DNA of 32,000 bases from Candidatus Saccharimonadota bacterium (GTDB lineage: Bacteria; Patescibacteriota; Saccharimonadia; Saccharimonadales; UBA4665). The stretch covers positions 660,001 through 692,000 of the forward strand of contig CP025011.1 of the NCBI GenBank assembly GCA_002952755.1, in the 5' to 3' direction. Below, in pieces: positions 2,437 to 27,711 of this stretch (the stretch's first letter is position 1; each line of letters begins with the position of its first letter). The notes beneath the pieces are model-generated. The model ran no database searches. It saw nothing but the letters and a program-made list of their open reading frames with translations, and was not told the DNA's origin. A program made the translations under genes and the position numbers.

Positions 2437-2508
2437 GCTGGGGATGAGGGATTCGAACCCCCGATCACGGGACCAGAACCCGTTGCCTTACCACTTGGCC
2501 AATCCCCA
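2435..2508 (-). tRNA. tRNA-Gln (anticodon CUG), CCA encoded
   Basis: Hand-folded cloverleaf. The acceptor stem TGGGGAT/ATCCCCA has U1-A72 and discriminator G73. The anticodon stem is ACGGG/CCCGT with loop TTCTGGT. The T arm is GGGGG-TTCGAAT-CCCTC. The gene ends in CCA at 2437-2435. Confidence 0.9.
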
Positions 2509-23042: not shown

Positions 23043-24370
23043 ACGAAGTTACAAACATTCACCTGGGGCGTCAGTCGTTTACGATTGCTGCCGACGCATA
23101 TAAAACATTGCAGGCCTATCTGCATGAAATCAAAGGGCAGGCAGGCGATAGTGGCGCTGAAGTAGCCAAAGAAGTCGAATCGCGAATGGCTGAATTGCTT
23201 ACTGAACACGGCATCACGACGCACAAGGTAATCTTGGCCGAAGATATCACGTATCTTAAAACGCAATTGGGCGAGCCGCGTGATTTTAAGACAGATGACG
23301 GCGAGGAACTCCCGAGTTCCGAATCGAGCGAGCCACATGGCAAGCGCCTTTTCCGTGACACTGAGCACGGCATGATCGCCGGTGTGGCGGCCGGTCTTGG
23401 CGCTTTCTTTGGTTTGCCGGCAATCGTGTTCCGTTTGCTATTTATTGTACTGCTCATACCTGGCGGAACGAGTATTTTAATCTATCTACTATTATGGCTG
23501 CTCGTCCCGGAGGCGACAACGCCGAGCGACCGTCTGCGCATGCAGGGCAAAGCGGTAACTGTAGACAGCCTAAAAGAAGTGATCGACCGTGCTGATGTGC
23601 AGGGTGCCGCGCAGCGTGCGAGCAAGATTTTCGGCGGGGCCGGTGAGACCTTCGCAAAATTGCTGCTCGGGATTATCGGCGTCGGTTTTATCCTTAGCGC
23701 GTTTGCACTGCTTACTGGCGGGGCAACGGTAACGAGCTTTCTGTTGGGTCACGGCTTAAAAGTCGGCAGTACTACTATATTCCCTGTTGGCAAAAAGGAG
23801 ACGTTAATCGTCATCTGTGGCCTCATCGTAGTTGCGCTTATTGCCAGTATGTTTGCGGTGGTTGGCAAGGCGATGTTCAGCCGAAAATGGCGACTTCCCA
23901 CCTGGGCAGCAGCGGCAATGGCGCTAACGTTTATTACTGCAGCTTCTGTTGGGGTGGCGCTCGGCTTCCAGACTGCCCCGGCTTGGCAAGCGCGGTATAG
24001 GAACAGTATGCATAGCCAGCTGTACAGTACCGCTCCATTTACCGAAGCGCGCTTTATAGCTCCAGATATCCCCGTCCTCTTCCAATTCGATCAGCACTAC
24101 GGCGTCGAGATCAAAACCGCTAGCAACATCGACACCAAGACAATTACAACAAACGTCAGCAAGGGCGTCCTCATGATCGACACCAGCCACTTGGTAACAA
24201 CTGACAGATGCGGTTTCCTATGTCCTGATGGTAACCGGAACGTTGAGATTGTGATCCATTCACCTGTGCCGCTCAATAGCACCACGGGCGTCGATCCGGG
24301 GAGCCCTCTGATGTTTAGCACCACGCCAGCCGAAGAACAACCGGCCGCAAAGCCCTCTATCGGTAATTAG
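23039..24370 (+). CDS. PspC domain-containing membrane protein
   Basis: Its start overlaps the PadR stop (ATGA). The PspC domain is LFRDTEHGMIAGVAAGLGAFFGLPAIVFRLLFIVLL...LLWLLVPEA. Further TM helices follow. Confidence 0.8.
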   Translation: MNEVTNIHLGRQSFTIAADAYKTLQAYLHEIKGQAGDSGAEVAKEVESRMAELLTEHGITTHKVILAEDITYLKTQLGEPRDFKTDDGEELPSSESSEPHGKRLFRDTEHGMIAGVAAGLGAFFGLPAIVFRLLFIVLLIPGGTSILIYLLLWLLVPEATTPSDRLRMQGKAVTVDSLKEVIDRADVQGAAQRASKIFGGAGETFAKLLLGIIGVGFILSAFALLTGGATVTSFLLGHGLKVGSTTIFPVGKKETLIVICGLIVVALIASMFAVVGKAMFSRKWRLPTWAAAAMALTFITAASVGVALGFQTAPAWQARYRNSMHSQLYSTAPFTEARFIAPDIPVLFQFDQHYGVEIKTASNIDTKTITTNVSKGVLMIDTSHLVTTDRCGFLCPDGNRNVEIVIHSPVPLNSTTGVDPGSPLMFSTTPAEEQPAAKPSIGN

Positions 24371-24854
24371 TGAAGCTTAGTGGGAAGTCAAATTCCTGCG
24401 TGCGCAGCAGTTGCATGACGGCCTGAAGGTCATCTTTGCTCATGCTCATCACACGCACCGCATCACCCTGAATCTGTGATTTGACCTTCGGGTAATGGTC
24501 GCGGATCAGGGCGGTGATTTTCTTAGCCTTCTCCTGGTCTAGACCTTGCTTGAAGGGGACTTCCTTAGTGGTTTTGAGGTTCGATTCAATCTGTTCTTTA
24601 CTTGTGTCCAATACTTTTTGACTCTGATTGCGAGCAGCAAGCTTTTTGCGCACAATGTCTAAAATAGCATCGATCTGCCATTCACCATTACCGGTAATTT
24701 TGAGTCCTGTTTTGTCGCTACCCAGCCACTCGATGCCCGCTGGCGTACCTTTAAAGTCGTAGCGCGAGGTCATTTCACGCTCGGTTTGATCAAAGACGTT
24801 ATTCATCTCTGCCTTGTCATACTCGCTTACTACATCAAAAGAAAACTGTGCCAT
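24357..24854 (-). CDS. yajQ: YajQ-family nucleotide / cyclic-di-GMP-binding protein
   Basis: MAQFSFDVVSEYDKAEMNNVFDQTEREMTSRYDFKG...QIQGDAVRVMSMSKDDLQAVMQLLR aligns along its full length with the YajQ family as I recall it. The ATG at 24854 is preferred to 24899. Confidence 0.85.
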   Translation of the reverse strand: MAQFSFDVVSEYDKAEMNNVFDQTEREMTSRYDFKGTPAGIEWLGSDKTGLKITGNGEWQIDAILDIVRKKLAARNQSQKVLDTSKEQIESNLKTTKEVPFKQGLDQEKAKKITALIRDHYPKVKSQIQGDAVRVMSMSKDDLQAVMQLLRTQEFDFPLSFTNYR

Positions 24855-24870: not shown

Positions 24871-24983
24871 GCAACCTGTGTCATTCCACCCTCATCCACC
24901 TCACCCGGAATCCATGTCTCCCACTAAGAACGGTATCCACAAAGCTAACTCTGCAAACTAGATTTCCTTAGTATTATCCGTCC

Positions 24984-25200
24984 CCGCGATTTACGCTTCT
25001 TCCTTGTCACTTTTTGTCCCGCAAAAAGTAACCAAAAACTCCCCAAGGCAAACGTAAAACACTACTGGAAAATACCCCGCACAGCATCTTCGCTGCGGAA
25101 CTCGCCCTTGATTGGGCTCAAACAGTCCTCGCTCGTGCAGATGCTGTGCGGGGTATTTTCCAATCGGTTTTACTCCAGGCCCCGAACCCCGTCGGAGGTG
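24984..25200 (+). repeat. copy 1 of an unclassified ~215-bp structured element
   Basis: It aligns block by block with the reverse complement of 25356-25570. It contains short hairpin 25009-25029 and a long perfect 23-bp hairpin, 25067-25089 paired with 25139-25161. Confidence 0.7.
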
Positions 25201-25256
25201 GAAAATGAATAATTGTAAGCGGGTGCAGTATATATATGAGAAAAGGAATGGAATGG

Positions 25257-25278
25257 ATTCCGGCTCAGAGGCCGGAAT
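25257..25278. other. central GC-rich hairpin (possible bidirectional terminator) between the two inverted element copies
   Basis: ATTCCGGC-TCAGAG-GCCGGAAT. It belongs to the same hairpin family as 10855-10874. Confidence 0.5.
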
Positions 25279-25355
25279 GACAAAGGCATAGCTTAAAGAA
25301 ATAGATCCTTATTTCCTTCTATCCTACATATTTACTGGATACCTCCCAACCGCAG

Positions 25356-25570
25356 CCCCACCTCTCCGAGTAGTTCGGCCGTAATGGAAAACTGATTAGC
25401 AGAAGGAACTAACATACTGGATAAAGACGAGGACTGTTTGAGCGTAGCGAGTTCCGCAGGCTCAGTATGTTAGTTCCTTTTGCTAGTAATGTTTTTCATT
25501 TTAGGCCGAGAGGTTTTTCGGTTCCTTTTTTGCGGGAAAAAAGGAACATTACAAGGATTACAATTCGCGG
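25356..25570 (-). repeat. copy 2 (inverted) of the unclassified structured element
   Basis: It contains short hairpin 25521-25547 and a long perfect 17-bp hairpin, 25403-25419 paired with 25463-25479. The stem extends to 25 bp if two G-T pairs are allowed. The loop blocks are identical to those of copy 1. Confidence 0.7.
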
Positions 25571-25755
25571 TTACAGAATTTACTGAGGGGGTTTGATGAG
25601 GGGGATGGTGCCTTTAGGAAGAGGGAGTTGGGGTTGAGGAGCCTTAAGGTATATGACAAGGGGTGGCGGATAGTATTCATATAAAAGATACATTCTGGAT
25701 CAGGGCGAAATGGTAGGAGCATTACTTTACCGACCTACTCTCTGGTAACAGATTT

Positions 25756-25773: not shown

Positions 25774-26829
25774 ATGAACTATACCAATCCCCGCATTGCT
25801 GAAGTTGCCGTTCAACTGCATACGCGCTTGAGCGAATCGCAAGACCCGGCTGAAATTTTAAAGGCCACCGAACTACGCGCGCTCTATGCCGAAATTCCGA
25901 CATTGCCGCCTGAGGAGCGAGGTGCATTCGGCAAAGAGATAAATCTTCTTAAATCAGACTTAGAGCGGGCTATTGCTGAGCGGCAAGAAACCGCCGAAGC
26001 GTTGCCATCGATCGACATTACTGCGCCATTTGACACGAACATTGCTCCAGATAAACGGCCGAAATTACTCGCCGCCGACAATGGCAGCGCGCACCCTCTT
26101 ATGACTGAGTTGGACGCCATTGTCGATATTTTCTATCGGATGGGCTTTACGGTAGCCGAATCGCGTCAATTGGACGACGAGTATCATATGTTTACCAGCC
26201 TGAATTTTCCCGAAGGTCATCCGGCACGTGATGACTACGACACTTTCATGACTACTCAAACCGACAAAAACGGCCACCCGCTCATTGCTCCAGCCCATAC
26301 CAGTACCATGCAGAATCGCATGCTCCAAAAGTACCGATCTAATCTTGGGGCGGGCAAGCCGATTGCCATACTCGTCCCTGATCGCGTTTTTCGGAACGAA
26401 GATCTTGACGCCCGTCACGAGCACACTTTCTATCAATACGAAGGGATGTACGTTGACAAAGGGGTGCATGCCGGTCATTTGGTGGCGACACTTAAAGCAT
26501 ACTTTAAGGCTTATTTTGAGCGCGATATAGAAGTGAAAATTCAGCCGTTCTACTTTCCATTCACCGAGCCAAGTTTTGAATTTGCTGCGAGCTGCCCGTT
26601 TTGTGAGGGCAAGGGTTGTAACATATGCAGCTATAGTGGCTGGATTGAGCTCGGCGGTTGCGGCATGATTCATCCGAACGTACTACGTATGGCCGGTATT
26701 GACCCAGCCGAGTACACTGGCTATGCCTGGGGTTTTGGAGTGGAGCGTATGGTAATGGTCAAGCGGGGTATCGAAGATATTCGCCTGTTTGAAAGTGGCA
26801 AACTTGAATTCCTAAAGCAGTTCGCCTGA
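25774..26829 (+). CDS. pheS: phenylalanine--tRNA ligase alpha subunit
   Basis: 351 aa. HPLMTELDAIVDIFYRMGF, FPEGHPARD, FRNEDLDARHEHTFYQYEGM and GFGVERMVM are class II PheS motifs. Confidence 0.95.
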   Translation: MNYTNPRIAEVAVQLHTRLSESQDPAEILKATELRALYAEIPTLPPEERGAFGKEINLLKSDLERAIAERQETAEALPSIDITAPFDTNIAPDKRPKLLAADNGSAHPLMTELDAIVDIFYRMGFTVAESRQLDDEYHMFTSLNFPEGHPARDDYDTFMTTQTDKNGHPLIAPAHTSTMQNRMLQKYRSNLGAGKPIAILVPDRVFRNEDLDARHEHTFYQYEGMYVDKGVHAGHLVATLKAYFKAYFERDIEVKIQPFYFPFTEPSFEFAASCPFCEGKGCNICSYSGWIELGGCGMIHPNVLRMAGIDPAEYTGYAWGFGVERMVMVKRGIEDIRLFESGKLEFLKQFA

Positions 26830-26845
26830 AGAAGAAAGGATATAC

Positions 26846-27247
26846 ATGCCAACTACTCCTAAGAACAAAACGGCCCTTACTCTCGAAGATTCAGCCTTGT
26901 GGCAGCTCGCCAAGAGTATGAGCGAGGCCGTGCGTAAGGTTGTCGCTGCGGTTCCTTATGAAGATCATTACACTTTCGCGTCAACCGCCATCCAGAACAG
27001 TACGCTCACCGCATCAGATATCGCGTTTGCCGTAGGCAAGGGGTCTGATGCCTCTCTATTCGACTATCACTATGCTCGTGGCCACCTATTTACAGCCAAA
27101 GGTTTGCTGCTCATGGCGCAGGATCTTAAGATTATCGCCATACCCAAGAGCTTGCTGAATGATTTCGACAAGCTGCAGCTACTCATCGAGCATGAAATTG
27201 ACAGGCTTGAGCAATCAGATGCCACAAAAAAGGAAGGCAGTAGATAG
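26846..27247 (+). CDS. four-helix-bundle protein (23S rRNA intervening-sequence protein family, TIGR02436-like)
   Basis: 133 aa. The pattern P.E..Y.....(Q)....S...IA...G.......DY.YARG...E....L.MAQDLKII loosely matches this family. The match is diverged, so the call is tentative. Confidence 0.55.
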   Translation: MPTTPKNKTALTLEDSALWQLAKSMSEAVRKVVAAVPYEDHYTFASTAIQNSTLTASDIAFAVGKGSDASLFDYHYARGHLFTAKGLLLMAQDLKIIAIPKSLLNDFDKLQLLIEHEIDRLEQSDATKKEGSR

Positions 27248-27249
27248 AT

Positions 27250-27711
27250 ATGGCAGAGCCGACGCTCTTTGACAAGATTGTTACCGGGACGATTCCTAGC
27301 TTTAAGGTTTGGGAAGACGACCAGTATCTAGCCTTTTTAACGCCATGGCCGAATACGCCAGGCTTTACCGTGGTCGTACCTAAAGTCAATCCTGGCGATA
27401 ATTATATTGATGTTGGCGATGCTGCCTACACCGGTCTGCTTTTGGCGGCCAAAAAAGTTGCCGTTGGTCTTGGGAAAGCGTTTGACGTTACCCGTGTTGG
27501 TTTAGTAATCGAAGGCGAGGGCGTGCCGCATCTGCATGTCAAACTCATTCCGATGCACGGCCAAAGTGACGGCCGCCATTCCCACGCTAGCCATAGTGAA
27601 TTTTATGAGCAATATGCCGGCTATCTGACCACCATCGAGGGGCCGCGTATGAGCGATGACGAACTAGCAACAACCCAACAGAAAATCATAGAGGCTGTAC
27701 GTGAAAATTAG
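27250..27711 (+). CDS. HIT (histidine triad) family protein
   Basis: 153 aa with the triad GVPHLHVKLIP. The N-terminus LFDKIVTGTIPSFKVWEDDQYLAFL is typical of HIT/Hint proteins. Confidence 0.85.
   Translation: MAEPTLFDKIVTGTIPSFKVWEDDQYLAFLTPWPNTPGFTVVVPKVNPGDNYIDVGDAAYTGLLLAAKKVAVGLGKAFDVTRVGLVIEGEGVPHLHVKLIPMHGQSDGRHSHASHSEFYEQYAGYLTTIEGPRMSDDELATTQQKIIEAVREN

Follow-up and report, generated by a model that had tools for sequence, protein, structure and literature searches.

The window analysed here is a 32,000-nt stretch of the chromosome of a Candidatus Saccharimonadota bacterium of the order Saccharimonadales (contig CP025011.1, positions 660,001 to 692,000; all coordinates below are window positions), in which two large hairpins lie between the divergent genes yajQ and pheS. 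The alignments indicate that the two hairpins are parts of a single non-coding insertion of approximately 800 bp in the yajQ–pheS spacer, and they belong to a palindromic repeat family that is apparently undescribed. The motif at the top of the hairpins, in which CGAGGACTGTTTGAGC and GCGAGTTCCGCAG flank a mini-hairpin, is present in genomes of at least 11 phyla, at no fewer than 120 loci. The family has a common architecture with a conserved structure and a polarity, forms divergent doublets, is present or absent between relatives and is inserted inside genes. We propose, with a probability of roughly 0.45, that it is a selfish or semi-domesticated palindromic DNA repeat of the kind of the repetitive extragenic palindromic sequences and their doublets (REP/REPIN), the Rickettsia palindromic elements (RPE) or the transposable elements of the miniature inverted-repeat type (MITE), which would act as DNA via a trans-acting factor. 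The combination of a conserved core with fast-evolving, perfectly paired stems is unusual.

Core and stems of the family

Large hairpin 1 covers positions 25057–25171 on the minus strand. Its perfect 23-bp middle stem pairs 25067–25089 with 25139–25161 (23/23) around a 49-nt loop, on a base of about 10 bp with G-T pairs and mismatches. In large hairpin 2 (25388–25494, plus strand), the perfect 17-bp middle stem pairs 25403–25419 with 25463–25479 (17/17) around a 43-nt loop, and the base (AAAACYGATTRG / CYAGTARTGTTTT) is conserved with that of hairpin 1 and with that of a metagenome locus, L132. When mismatches and G-T pairs were allowed, the stems extended to 33 nt at 88% in hairpin 1 and to 32 nt at 84% in hairpin 2. 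The two loops share the exact block CTGCGGAACTCGC (25093–25105 on the plus strand and 25447–25459 on the minus strand) and the block CTCAAACAGTCCTCG (25117–25131, plus, and 25428–25442, minus), for which the full exact match is 16 nt long (GCTCAAACAGTCCTCG). An earlier note on this DNA had put forward these hairpin coordinates, loop sizes and loop blocks, and the sequence and a repeat finder returned them exactly. No further exact copy of the loop blocks was present within the 32-kb window, and the arm sequences had no second match elsewhere in it, even at three mismatches. The RNA folding z-scores were −10.2/−9.7 for copy 1 and −8.1/−6.8 for copy 2, the DNA folding z-scores of both hairpins ranged from −8.4 to −6.4, and none of 200 dinucleotide shuffles folded as well as either hairpin on either strand, as RNA or as DNA.

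The family was collected by scanning one genome per species for GCGGAACTCGC-N(1–30)-CTCAAACAGTCC, a pattern for which about eight chance matches were expected. The loci studied were 8-kb stretches around the matches, plus the 32-kb window. A covariance model built from 28 copies gave 149 matches in the loci at the E-value cut-offs (120 and 29), in addition to the two window copies. The carriers included Saccharibacteria and other Patescibacteria (among them Parcubacteria), many Gallionellaceae, other Betaproteobacteria, Gammaproteobacteria, Nitrospirota, Lachnospiraceae, Coriobacteriia and other Actinomycetota, Bacteroidota, Gastranaerophilales (Melainabacteria), Omnitrophota, Desulfobacterota and Spirochaetota. 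Individual carrier sequences are Nitrospirales OZ253473.1 and OY763007.1, Pseudomonadales OZ246007.1, Rhodocyclaceae JASGKX010000001.1 and Variovorax paradoxus CP063167.1, and cultured carriers exist in Variovorax, Zhongshania, Dasania and Uliginosibacterium. Several assemblies among the 120 or more loci contributed at least two contigs with the element, which indicates several copies per genome. The core pattern had no match in 2.9 million viral contigs and none in 5,426 Escherichia coli genomes; among 72,556 plasmid records, matches occurred only in three proteobacterial megaplasmid or chromid records, where the repeat is unannotated. At the gathering threshold of Rfam 15, the window yielded only a tRNA (2438–2508, minus strand, 61.7 bits) and ten other loci only a 16S fragment, and the best match of the hairpin region at E ≤ 10 was bglG-cis-reg, with 24 bits for a cut-off of 80. 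A full-text literature search for the core strings and for descriptive terms returned primer coincidences and papers on REP and MITE, and no description of the family.

The R strand is defined as the strand reading GGACTGTTTGAG...GCGAGTTCCGC. The design shared on this strand is a long outer stem, CGA GGACTGTTTGAG, an inner hairpin, GCGAGTTCCGC AG and the outer stem again. Judging from the aligned copies, the hairpin is made of three zones: an invariant and asymmetric top core of about 33 nt, arranged around a very stable mini-hairpin of the GCGNAGC type, a hypervariable but perfectly paired middle stem, and a lineage-specific base. The 33-nt core is nearly identical among carriers from at least 11 phyla; the loop blocks are under very strong constraint, in line with the inference of the earlier note. 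Hairpin length ranged from 50 to 143 nt among the copies listed. In the 32 kb of the window, the core covariance model (R1) gave exactly two matches at its cut-offs. Core copy 1 (25093–25131, minus strand; 38.7 bits, E = 5e-12) reads CGAGGACTGTTTGAGC-CCAATCAAGG-GCGAGTTCCGCAG on the minus strand, with its inner hairpin at 25104–25117 of that strand. Core copy 2 (25428–25459, plus strand; 63 bits, E = 4e-21) reads CGAGGACTGTTTGAG-CGTA-GCGAGTTCCGCAG and has an inner GCGTAGC mini-hairpin with a C(GTA)G triloop at 25442–25448, on the same strand. A weak covariance-model match at 26936–26988 of the minus strand (11.9 bits, E = 0.06), within an open reading frame (ORF) resembling intervening-sequence proteins, agrees in the outer stem and the CGA/CGCAG edges and in nothing more; it is probably due to chance.

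The inner hairpin measures 4 to 28 nt and is closed between the G that ends the first block and the GC at the start of the second. The gap between the loop blocks is 11 nt in copy 1 and 4 nt in copy 2, from which the note had concluded that the conservation is not protein-coding. The gap lengths found in the family (4, 8, 10, 12, 16 and 23 nt) are not multiples of three, so that the core is indeed non-coding, and this distribution ruled out a protein-coding core. A reading of the core as a promoter of the extracytoplasmic function (ECF) type, GGAACT-N-TCAAA, was rejected, the spacing varying from 8 to 32 nt. Among 140 distinct inner hairpins there were 83 triloops, 70 of which were GNA closed by C-G, and five tetraloops. 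Mini-hairpins of the d(GCGNAGC) type are far more stable as DNA than as RNA and are present at single-stranded DNA priming sites (PMC13037366; PMC3201870).

The stems are conserved in structure and not in sequence. In 85 non-redundant copies, the 5' arms were 27% identical, i.e. random, and the mean pairing energy was −36.3 kcal/mol for cognate arms versus −15.6 kcal/mol for non-cognate ones. In the covariance-model alignment, four core-proximal stem pairs alternate between G-C, C-G, A-U and U-A. In this part of the stem 82% of the cells are paired, compared to 30–44% with the partner column slid, and none of 500 shuffles equalled the observed covariation score. Homologous arms in three Patescibacteria loci (L028, L076 and L093) show many differences with the pairing kept, perfect stems reach 35–51 bp in several Patescibacteria, and the stems match the base composition of each host. 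The statement of the earlier note that every difference between the two window stems is mirrored in the partner arm is true; it is, however, automatic for two perfect hairpins and is no evidence of compensation by itself, so that this evidence rests on the wider family. There, the proposed conservation of the stem structure held: the stems are maintained in homologues and covariation exceeds the background.

One strand is favoured. In the R-strand stems, G-T pairs outnumbered A-C pairs by 205 to 136 (binomial p = 2e-4, for copies that are not independent). Folded as RNA, the R strand and the opposite strand gave −65.3 versus −61.6 kcal/mol for hairpin 1 and −46.5 versus −35.6 kcal/mol for hairpin 2; the latter values agree with the remark, made in the note, that the G-U pairs of copy 2 suit a plus-strand molecule, and the same strand is favoured family-wide. 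The R strand is a slightly better folder in all four modules of the window, namely the two large hairpins and the two smaller hairpins A described below.

Locus L132 illustrates the turnover of the stem. It was the one true relative, beside five chance matches, retrieved by a metagenome search for copies of the source genome, and it is a solo unit located between two co-directional genes. Compared to the window unit built on hairpin 1 (unit 1), its flanks, including the hairpin base and hairpin A, are 83–86% identical and its core 87% identical; the middle stem is 17–24% identical, i.e. random. The middle stems are each fully self-complementary (23/23 in hairpin 1, 17/17 in hairpin 2 and 19/19 in L132), the mismatches and G-T pairs being confined to the conserved base and not found in the hypervariable middle. 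Betaproteobacterial copies follow the same pattern: their flanks (GCGCCGCCGAGTAGCGCA... / ...GAGCAACGCAGGG) are conserved, the core is invariant and the stems are unrelated to one another. The simplest account of a stem which stays perfect and diverges faster than its flanks and core is that pairing would be the sole constraint on the middle stem, and that template-switch correction within the palindrome would transfer each change to the opposite arm. It is possible that the stem is replaced as a whole unit. A spacer- or guide-like nature of the arms was rejected, as the 23-mer had no viral match and the 17-mer four, which is about the chance level.

Intra-palindrome gene conversion, the alternative raised in the earlier note, probably does keep the stems perfect but cannot explain a core common to 11 phyla. 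In its strictest form, this explanation would reduce the two hairpins to a purely local inverted duplication with arms homogenised by gene conversion and without wider significance. The two units are adjacent and inverted, and template-switch correction plausibly explains perfect stems; the idea is nevertheless refuted by the same core and architecture at the 120 or more other loci and by L132, which is closer to unit 1 than unit 2 is, and practically no weight can be given to it.

Polarity, doublets and the insertion between yajQ and pheS

The earlier note missed that each hairpin is the centre of a polar unit of approximately 340 nt within a composite insertion. One sign of the polarity is a second module, hairpin A: read on the R strand, 64 of 126 copies carry it 60–75 nt (median 68) 3' of the core, and three of the 126 on the 5' side. 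In this module a T-run precedes an A/T hairpin whose 5' arm is rich in pyrimidines and whose tip is often GCGAAGC. Its sequence, TTTTTGGTTACTTTTTG...CAAAAAGTRAC, is recognisable in Saccharibacteria, Betaproteobacteria, Bacteroidales, Nitrospirales and Gastranaerophilales.

Paired copies were divergent, with the R strands pointing outward, at 22 loci; one pair was convergent (a weak match) and three were in tandem. The window carries a standard doublet. The doublet spacing was mostly 160–430 nt, some copies being 1.2–3.5 kb apart. Wide doublets enclose heterogeneous small genes, such as McrBC with an AAA partner, DUF4357, DUF2971 and an 8xMP membrane protein. An IS4-type transposase was located between the pair in one locus and was the sole transposase seen between pairs. 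The doublets around McrBC and other defence-type genes suggest that the element may be a vehicle for small gene cassettes. A cultured carrier, Variovorax paradoxus (L126; CP063167.1, 173.6–174.2 kb), has a divergent doublet near a HigA-like regulator and a HigB toxin remnant, the repeat itself being unannotated. In four Gallionellaceae loci (L010, L023, L116 and L118), other short repeats (...CCATCCTTCGAYAC..., ...CATTCATGTTTCGATA...) adjoin the units in varied combinations, a mosaic which recalls the interspersed mosaic elements of bacteria (BIMEs).

In the window, the whole composite insertion extends from 24875 to 25666 according to the unit-to-unit alignments and fills nearly the entire yajQ–pheS spacer, which measures about 920 nt. 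Unit 1 (24875–25234, R strand on the minus strand) reads towards yajQ and unit 2 (25327–25666, R strand on the plus strand) reads towards pheS. Unit 1 aligns lengthwise with unit 2 and with L132: the segment 24860–25240 (minus) aligns with 25320–25680 (plus) over approximately 340 nt, the two units being about 70% identical. Hairpin A of unit 1 (25006–25038, minus strand) reads TTTTT-G-GTTACTTTTTG-CGGGA-CAAAAAGTGAC on the R strand, and that of unit 2 (25514–25547, plus strand) reads TTTTT-CG-GTTCCTTTTTT-GCGGG-AAAAAAGGAAC; both are located 62 nt 3' of the core. The central piece between the two inverted units is about 90 nt long and contains a hairpin at 25253–25286 on the plus strand (ATTCCGGC-TCAGAG-GCCGGAAT, then GACAAAGG; inverted repeats I3 and I6). 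A diverged inverted copy of this central module (ATTCCGGC..GCCGGAATGACAAAGG) occupies 24875–24915, at the outer end of unit 1 and beside the yajQ promoter, and the module also terminates the solo unit of L132. The doublet may thus contain, at its centre, what is left of the end of a third unit.

In a relative that shares the PspC-YajQ(−)-pheS(+) gene order, only 68 nt separate yajQ from pheS, and the covariance model found no copy at the pheS loci of three relatives (L003–L005). The 800 nt are therefore best described as an insertion in this lineage. On the right, pheS (25774–26829, plus strand; Pfam tRNA-synt_2d, E = 3e-75) lies outside the element; its nearest relatives are 75–80% identical and its homologues belong to Saccharimonadales (TM7, Patescibacteria). 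On the left, yajQ (24357–24854, minus strand; Pfam DUF520, E = 9e-53), also outside the element, has its ATG at 24854. The sequence TGGTATAAT was observed 7 nt upstream of this ATG, and the segment 24854–24880 (minus) contains no Shine-Dalgarno sequence, which together suggest a leaderless or near-leaderless yajQ mRNA. A gene of L132 (approximately 290–340) has the same layout, with TTGCAT-17 nt-TATGCT, then 8 nt and a GTG start.

The arrangement of inverted repeats between divergent genes could also be that of an invertible switch, in which the inverted units, or the palindromic hairpin-A sites (25006–25032 and 25521–25547), would serve as sites for an invertase, with its gene elsewhere, that flips the segment between the two divergent genes. 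The half-sites of hairpin A may bear a faint likeness to A-tract half-sites of the hix type. Two independent Logan assemblies (SRR9952756 and SRR34954209) with an identical PheS end inside unit 2, at 25503 and 25535, the latter position falling within the hairpin-A loop. Contig ends of this kind could come from the collapse of a repeat, from lower coverage at hairpins or from structural heterogeneity; the two ends are at different positions and can be put down just as well to a repeat or to a loss of coverage. No recombinase gene lies in the window or near the other copies, the segment was seen in no other orientation, copies often occur as solo units or within genes, and the units are only about 70% identical. 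A switch of this type is thus very unlikely.

The remaining genes of the window are ordinary housekeeping genes, and no transposase or recombinase gene was found among them. The pheS-pheT operon is split by two extra ORFs (26846–27711). The first, of 133 aa, has a weak match to the 23S rRNA intervening-sequence protein, a four-helix bundle (E = 5.6e-4, below the cut-off); it is absent in L004 and present without Pfam match in L003 and L005, and is therefore variable itself. The second encodes a HIT-domain protein.

Mode of action and competing readings

The genomic context, as compared through the neighbour proteins, was different at every locus. Clustering of the ORFs within ±3.5 kb of about 120 copies gave no recurring neighbour protein; only spurious ORFs running through the repeat recurred, and these had no Pfam family. 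The genes flanking 37 low-GC loci were oriented (−,−) in 15 cases, (+,+) in nine, convergent in ten and divergent in three. The strand of the element is thus not fixed with respect to transcription, and spacers that hold only promoters are avoided. Some copies are inserted in coding sequences. A copy of approximately 105 nt lies in frame and without a stop within glyA (L107), in the R orientation, and two species of Saccharibacteria (L018 and L038) have a copy in the opposite orientation, also in frame and without a stop, within ileS. The glyA and ileS copies are independent of each other and add about 35–60 residues to essential genes of Patescibacteria. Other large insertions, among them hydrolase-like N-terminal or internal segments, further distinguish the ileS genes of L018 and L038 from each other.

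The excess of G-T over A-C pairs, the one-sided position of hairpin A and the better folding of the R strand speak for this strand as the functional one, as DNA or as RNA. A structured non-coding RNA would have the units transcribed outward on the R strand, with an invariant internal loop, possibly containing tandem G-A pairs, as a catalytic or a protein- or ligand-binding site, and variable stems as scaffolding. The family has the anatomy of a ribozyme or of a riboswitch-like motif, with an invariant internal loop, covarying stems of variable length and a sporadic, multicopy spread across phyla. The excess of G-U over A-C on one strand and the better RNA folding of the R strand in both large hairpins are also in its favour, and in the three Saccharimonadales units, namely the two of the window and L132, the R strand runs in the same direction as the gene downstream of it. 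The rest of the evidence leans away from a structured RNA. No promoter-like site emerged from a sigma-70 scan, which gave two terminator-like matches, no more than in shuffles. The T-run is located on the 5' side of hairpin A and not on its 3' side. There was no Rfam match even at E ≤ 10, gene orientation is unfixed at the 37 low-GC loci, and copies of both orientations within genes keep the reading frame open. Perfect helices of 40–50 bp would be substrates of RNase III, and the inner loops are triloops, 70 of them GNA, rather than GNRA or UNCG tetraloops. The likeness to the hammerhead (CUGAUGAG/CGAAAC), to the hairpin-ribozyme substrate (ACAGUCC) or to a K-turn was superficial when inspected by eye, since the defining residues, spacings and bulge sizes do not agree. 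A structured RNA is consequently a rather unlikely explanation, to be kept ahead of the other alternatives.

The element most likely works as DNA, an R-strand RNA being possible. DNA is favoured because of the C(GNA)G triloops, the perfect stems of 35–51 bp, the absence of an Rfam family and of a sigma-70-like promoter site, the unfixed orientation and the in-frame copies. The earlier note had left the choice between a functional RNA and a protein-recognised hairpin; the latter fits better, probably as DNA, and the evidence leans away from the former.

We therefore return to the selfish or semi-domesticated palindromic DNA repeat proposed above. In this model, the R strand would fold when single-stranded or when extruded as a cruciform. 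A protein acting in trans would recognise the folded core and propagate or maintain the element, by analogy with REP/REPIN and their transposases (REP-associated tyrosine transposases, RAYT) or with the ends of IS200/IS605, and mobility would be the reason for its spread. A family of the REP, RPE or MITE kind agrees with an element that is non-coding, dispersed, multicopy, variably present, tolerated in genes, arranged in inverted doublets and devoid of a gene of its own.

Several observations weigh against this proposal. No candidate partner gene was found beside any copy or in the window. No target-site duplication or terminal tag was visible at the hairpin boundaries of the 60 copies listed, and no duplication at the ends of the doublets. 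The 33-nt core is identical across phyla, unlike the lineage-specific recognition sequences of REPs and MITEs, and this points to a universal partner or to a host function; the exact 23-nt search pattern does inflate the apparent invariance of the core, and the variant CTCAGAC was common among the partner copies retrieved with mismatches. Some copies look old and vertically inherited, such as the ileS copy shared by two species and a copy at an orthologous position in Gallionella. Lastly, the bias of G-T over A-C and the GNA loops are also compatible with an R-strand RNA.

The invariant asymmetric core in at least 11 phyla, together with the host-adapted stems, speaks for an element that has long resided in its hosts and is strongly constrained, by a partner of wide or universal distribution. 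In a doubtful but more novel reading, the core would be a universal module, read as folded single-stranded DNA or RNA by conserved machinery (primase, RNA polymerase, or a new nuclease or recombinase), or a new catalytic RNA. The stem would then be more than scaffolding: it would be regenerated or exchanged whole by fold-back copying, or would serve as a guide-like cassette, and the family would be a new class of element instead of one more REP or MITE. We consider this to be marginally less probable than the structured RNA.

A signal in the service of the host might also be imagined, either as a folded single-strand site for conserved machinery such as primase, PriA or RNA polymerase, like the single-strand initiation signals and single-strand origins, which occur on both strands, or with a REP-like role in topology, termination or mRNA stability. 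The cross-phylum invariance of the core does argue for a universally conserved partner, GCGNAGC mini-hairpins are present at the priming site of phage G4 and in RSF1010 ssiA, and the element is depleted in divergent, promoter-only spacers (3/37). Between Gallionella species, the elements are 82–87% conserved versus 74% for the flanking genes. However, the element is not associated with replication genes, plasmids or phages, close relatives without a copy at the same locus indicate that the element is dispensable, and some copies lie inside coding sequences. Were the R strand the template, the two halves of a doublet would give convergent and not divergent synthesis, and the hairpins are not terminators because no T-run follows them. 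A host-serving DNA signal is therefore improbable, more so than the universal module.

Small palindromic repeats are normally lineage-specific, and a 33-nt centre conserved across phyla implies either a widespread, unrecognised mobilising enzyme or a contact with universal machinery. For the Candidate Phyla Radiation with its reduced genomes, the family would also be one of the rare examples of repeated or mobile DNA, present there even within ileS and glyA. The perfect and fast-evolving stem, flanked by conserved sequence and topped by an invariant core, offers a clean natural example in which palindrome correction can be studied. Finally, in many metagenome-assembled genomes, assembly breaks and spurious ORF calls may partly be due to the element.

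Comparison with known systems

In IS200/IS605 elements, the left and right subterminal hairpins differ, lie on the same strand and flank tnpA and/or tnpB. Their ends do not correspond to this family: the halves of the doublets are inverted on opposite strands and no tnpA or tnpB gene lies between or near them. Integron attC sites are built of R''/L''...L'/R' boxes (RYYYAAC/GTTRRRY), with conserved ends and a variable centre, and form arrays in one orientation next to intI. The family has variable ends, an invariant centre, inverted pairs and no integrase.

Like the ribozymes and small structured RNAs (hammerhead, twister and hairpin), the family combines invariant internal-loop nucleotides, covarying stems of variable length and a sporadic multicopy spread across phyla with no neighbours conserved. 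It differs from them by the lack of an Rfam match, by core residues that fit no known class, by triloops of the DNA type, by its very long perfect helices and by the lack of a strand relation to genes.

The single-strand initiation signals and origins (G4 ori-c, RSF1010 ssiA/ssiB and ssoA) are orientation-specific DNA hairpins, with mini-hairpin tips of GCGNAGC or GCGNNAGC, and, like the family, have unpaired blocks that are conserved within stems whose sequence is otherwise free to vary. In ssoA of rolling-circle plasmids, such unpaired blocks lie within long stems of unconserved sequence, and in RSF1010 the ssiA and ssiB signals are on opposite strands. The origin of RSF1010 comprises these two signals, and the GCGNAGC mini-hairpin occurs in ssiA and in the phage G4 priming site (PMC13037366). 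The difference lies in location: these signals are found in phage and plasmid origins by replication genes, whereas the present family is chromosomal, with housekeeping genes as neighbours and nearly no plasmid copies.

Bacterial MITEs, such as Correia/NEMIS, ERIC/IRU and RU-1/2/3 (PMC3184786, PMC2759123), are likewise small non-autonomous insertions with long hairpins, intergenic and occasionally located in genes, whose presence varies between relatives. They have conserved terminal inverted repeats that match those of an autonomous insertion sequence, a variable interior and target-site duplications; in the present family it is the arms that vary and the interior that is invariant. No conserved terminal inverted repeats were found here, the arms being 27% identical and the conservation central. 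No target duplication was found either, in a comparison that lacks an exact empty site.

The Rickettsia palindromic elements, reportedly described by Ogata et al. in 2000, are approximately 100–150 bp long, lie in frame in essential protein genes and are translated through. The in-frame copies in glyA (L107) and ileS (L018 and L038) resemble them in this respect. RPEs are restricted to Rickettsia and have their own consensus, without a cross-phylum core, cargo doublets or a second hairpin. The two are set apart here by host range, none of the carriers found being a Rickettsia.

Another close parallel is that of the REP/REPIN sequences mobilised by RAYT proteins of the Y1 HUH type (PMC3116915, PMC3337134, PMC3479197). 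The likeness extends to dispersed, mostly extragenic, non-coding palindromes, to inverted doublets, to long persistence, to mosaics with other repeats and, under the proposed model, to folding as single-stranded DNA and to propagation in trans by a gene elsewhere. REPs reach tens to hundreds of copies per genome, and the cognate RAYT gene is itself bordered by the repeats; here, several assemblies contributed at least two contigs. REPs are imperfect palindromes that measure 20–40 nt, are lineage-specific and carry GTAG/CGTC at the foot, whereas this family measures 50–143 nt, is conserved at the top and crosses phyla. In 60 copies, no recurrent GTAG/CGTC foot tag was found, the feet starting with GTCAT, GAAAC, CGTTT, GCGAC, ATATC and others, and no RAYT gene was present within ±3.5 kb of about 120 copies or in the window. 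Inverted doublets like those of REPINs are present at the 22 divergent loci, with a spacing of 160–430 nt that is much larger than in REPINs.

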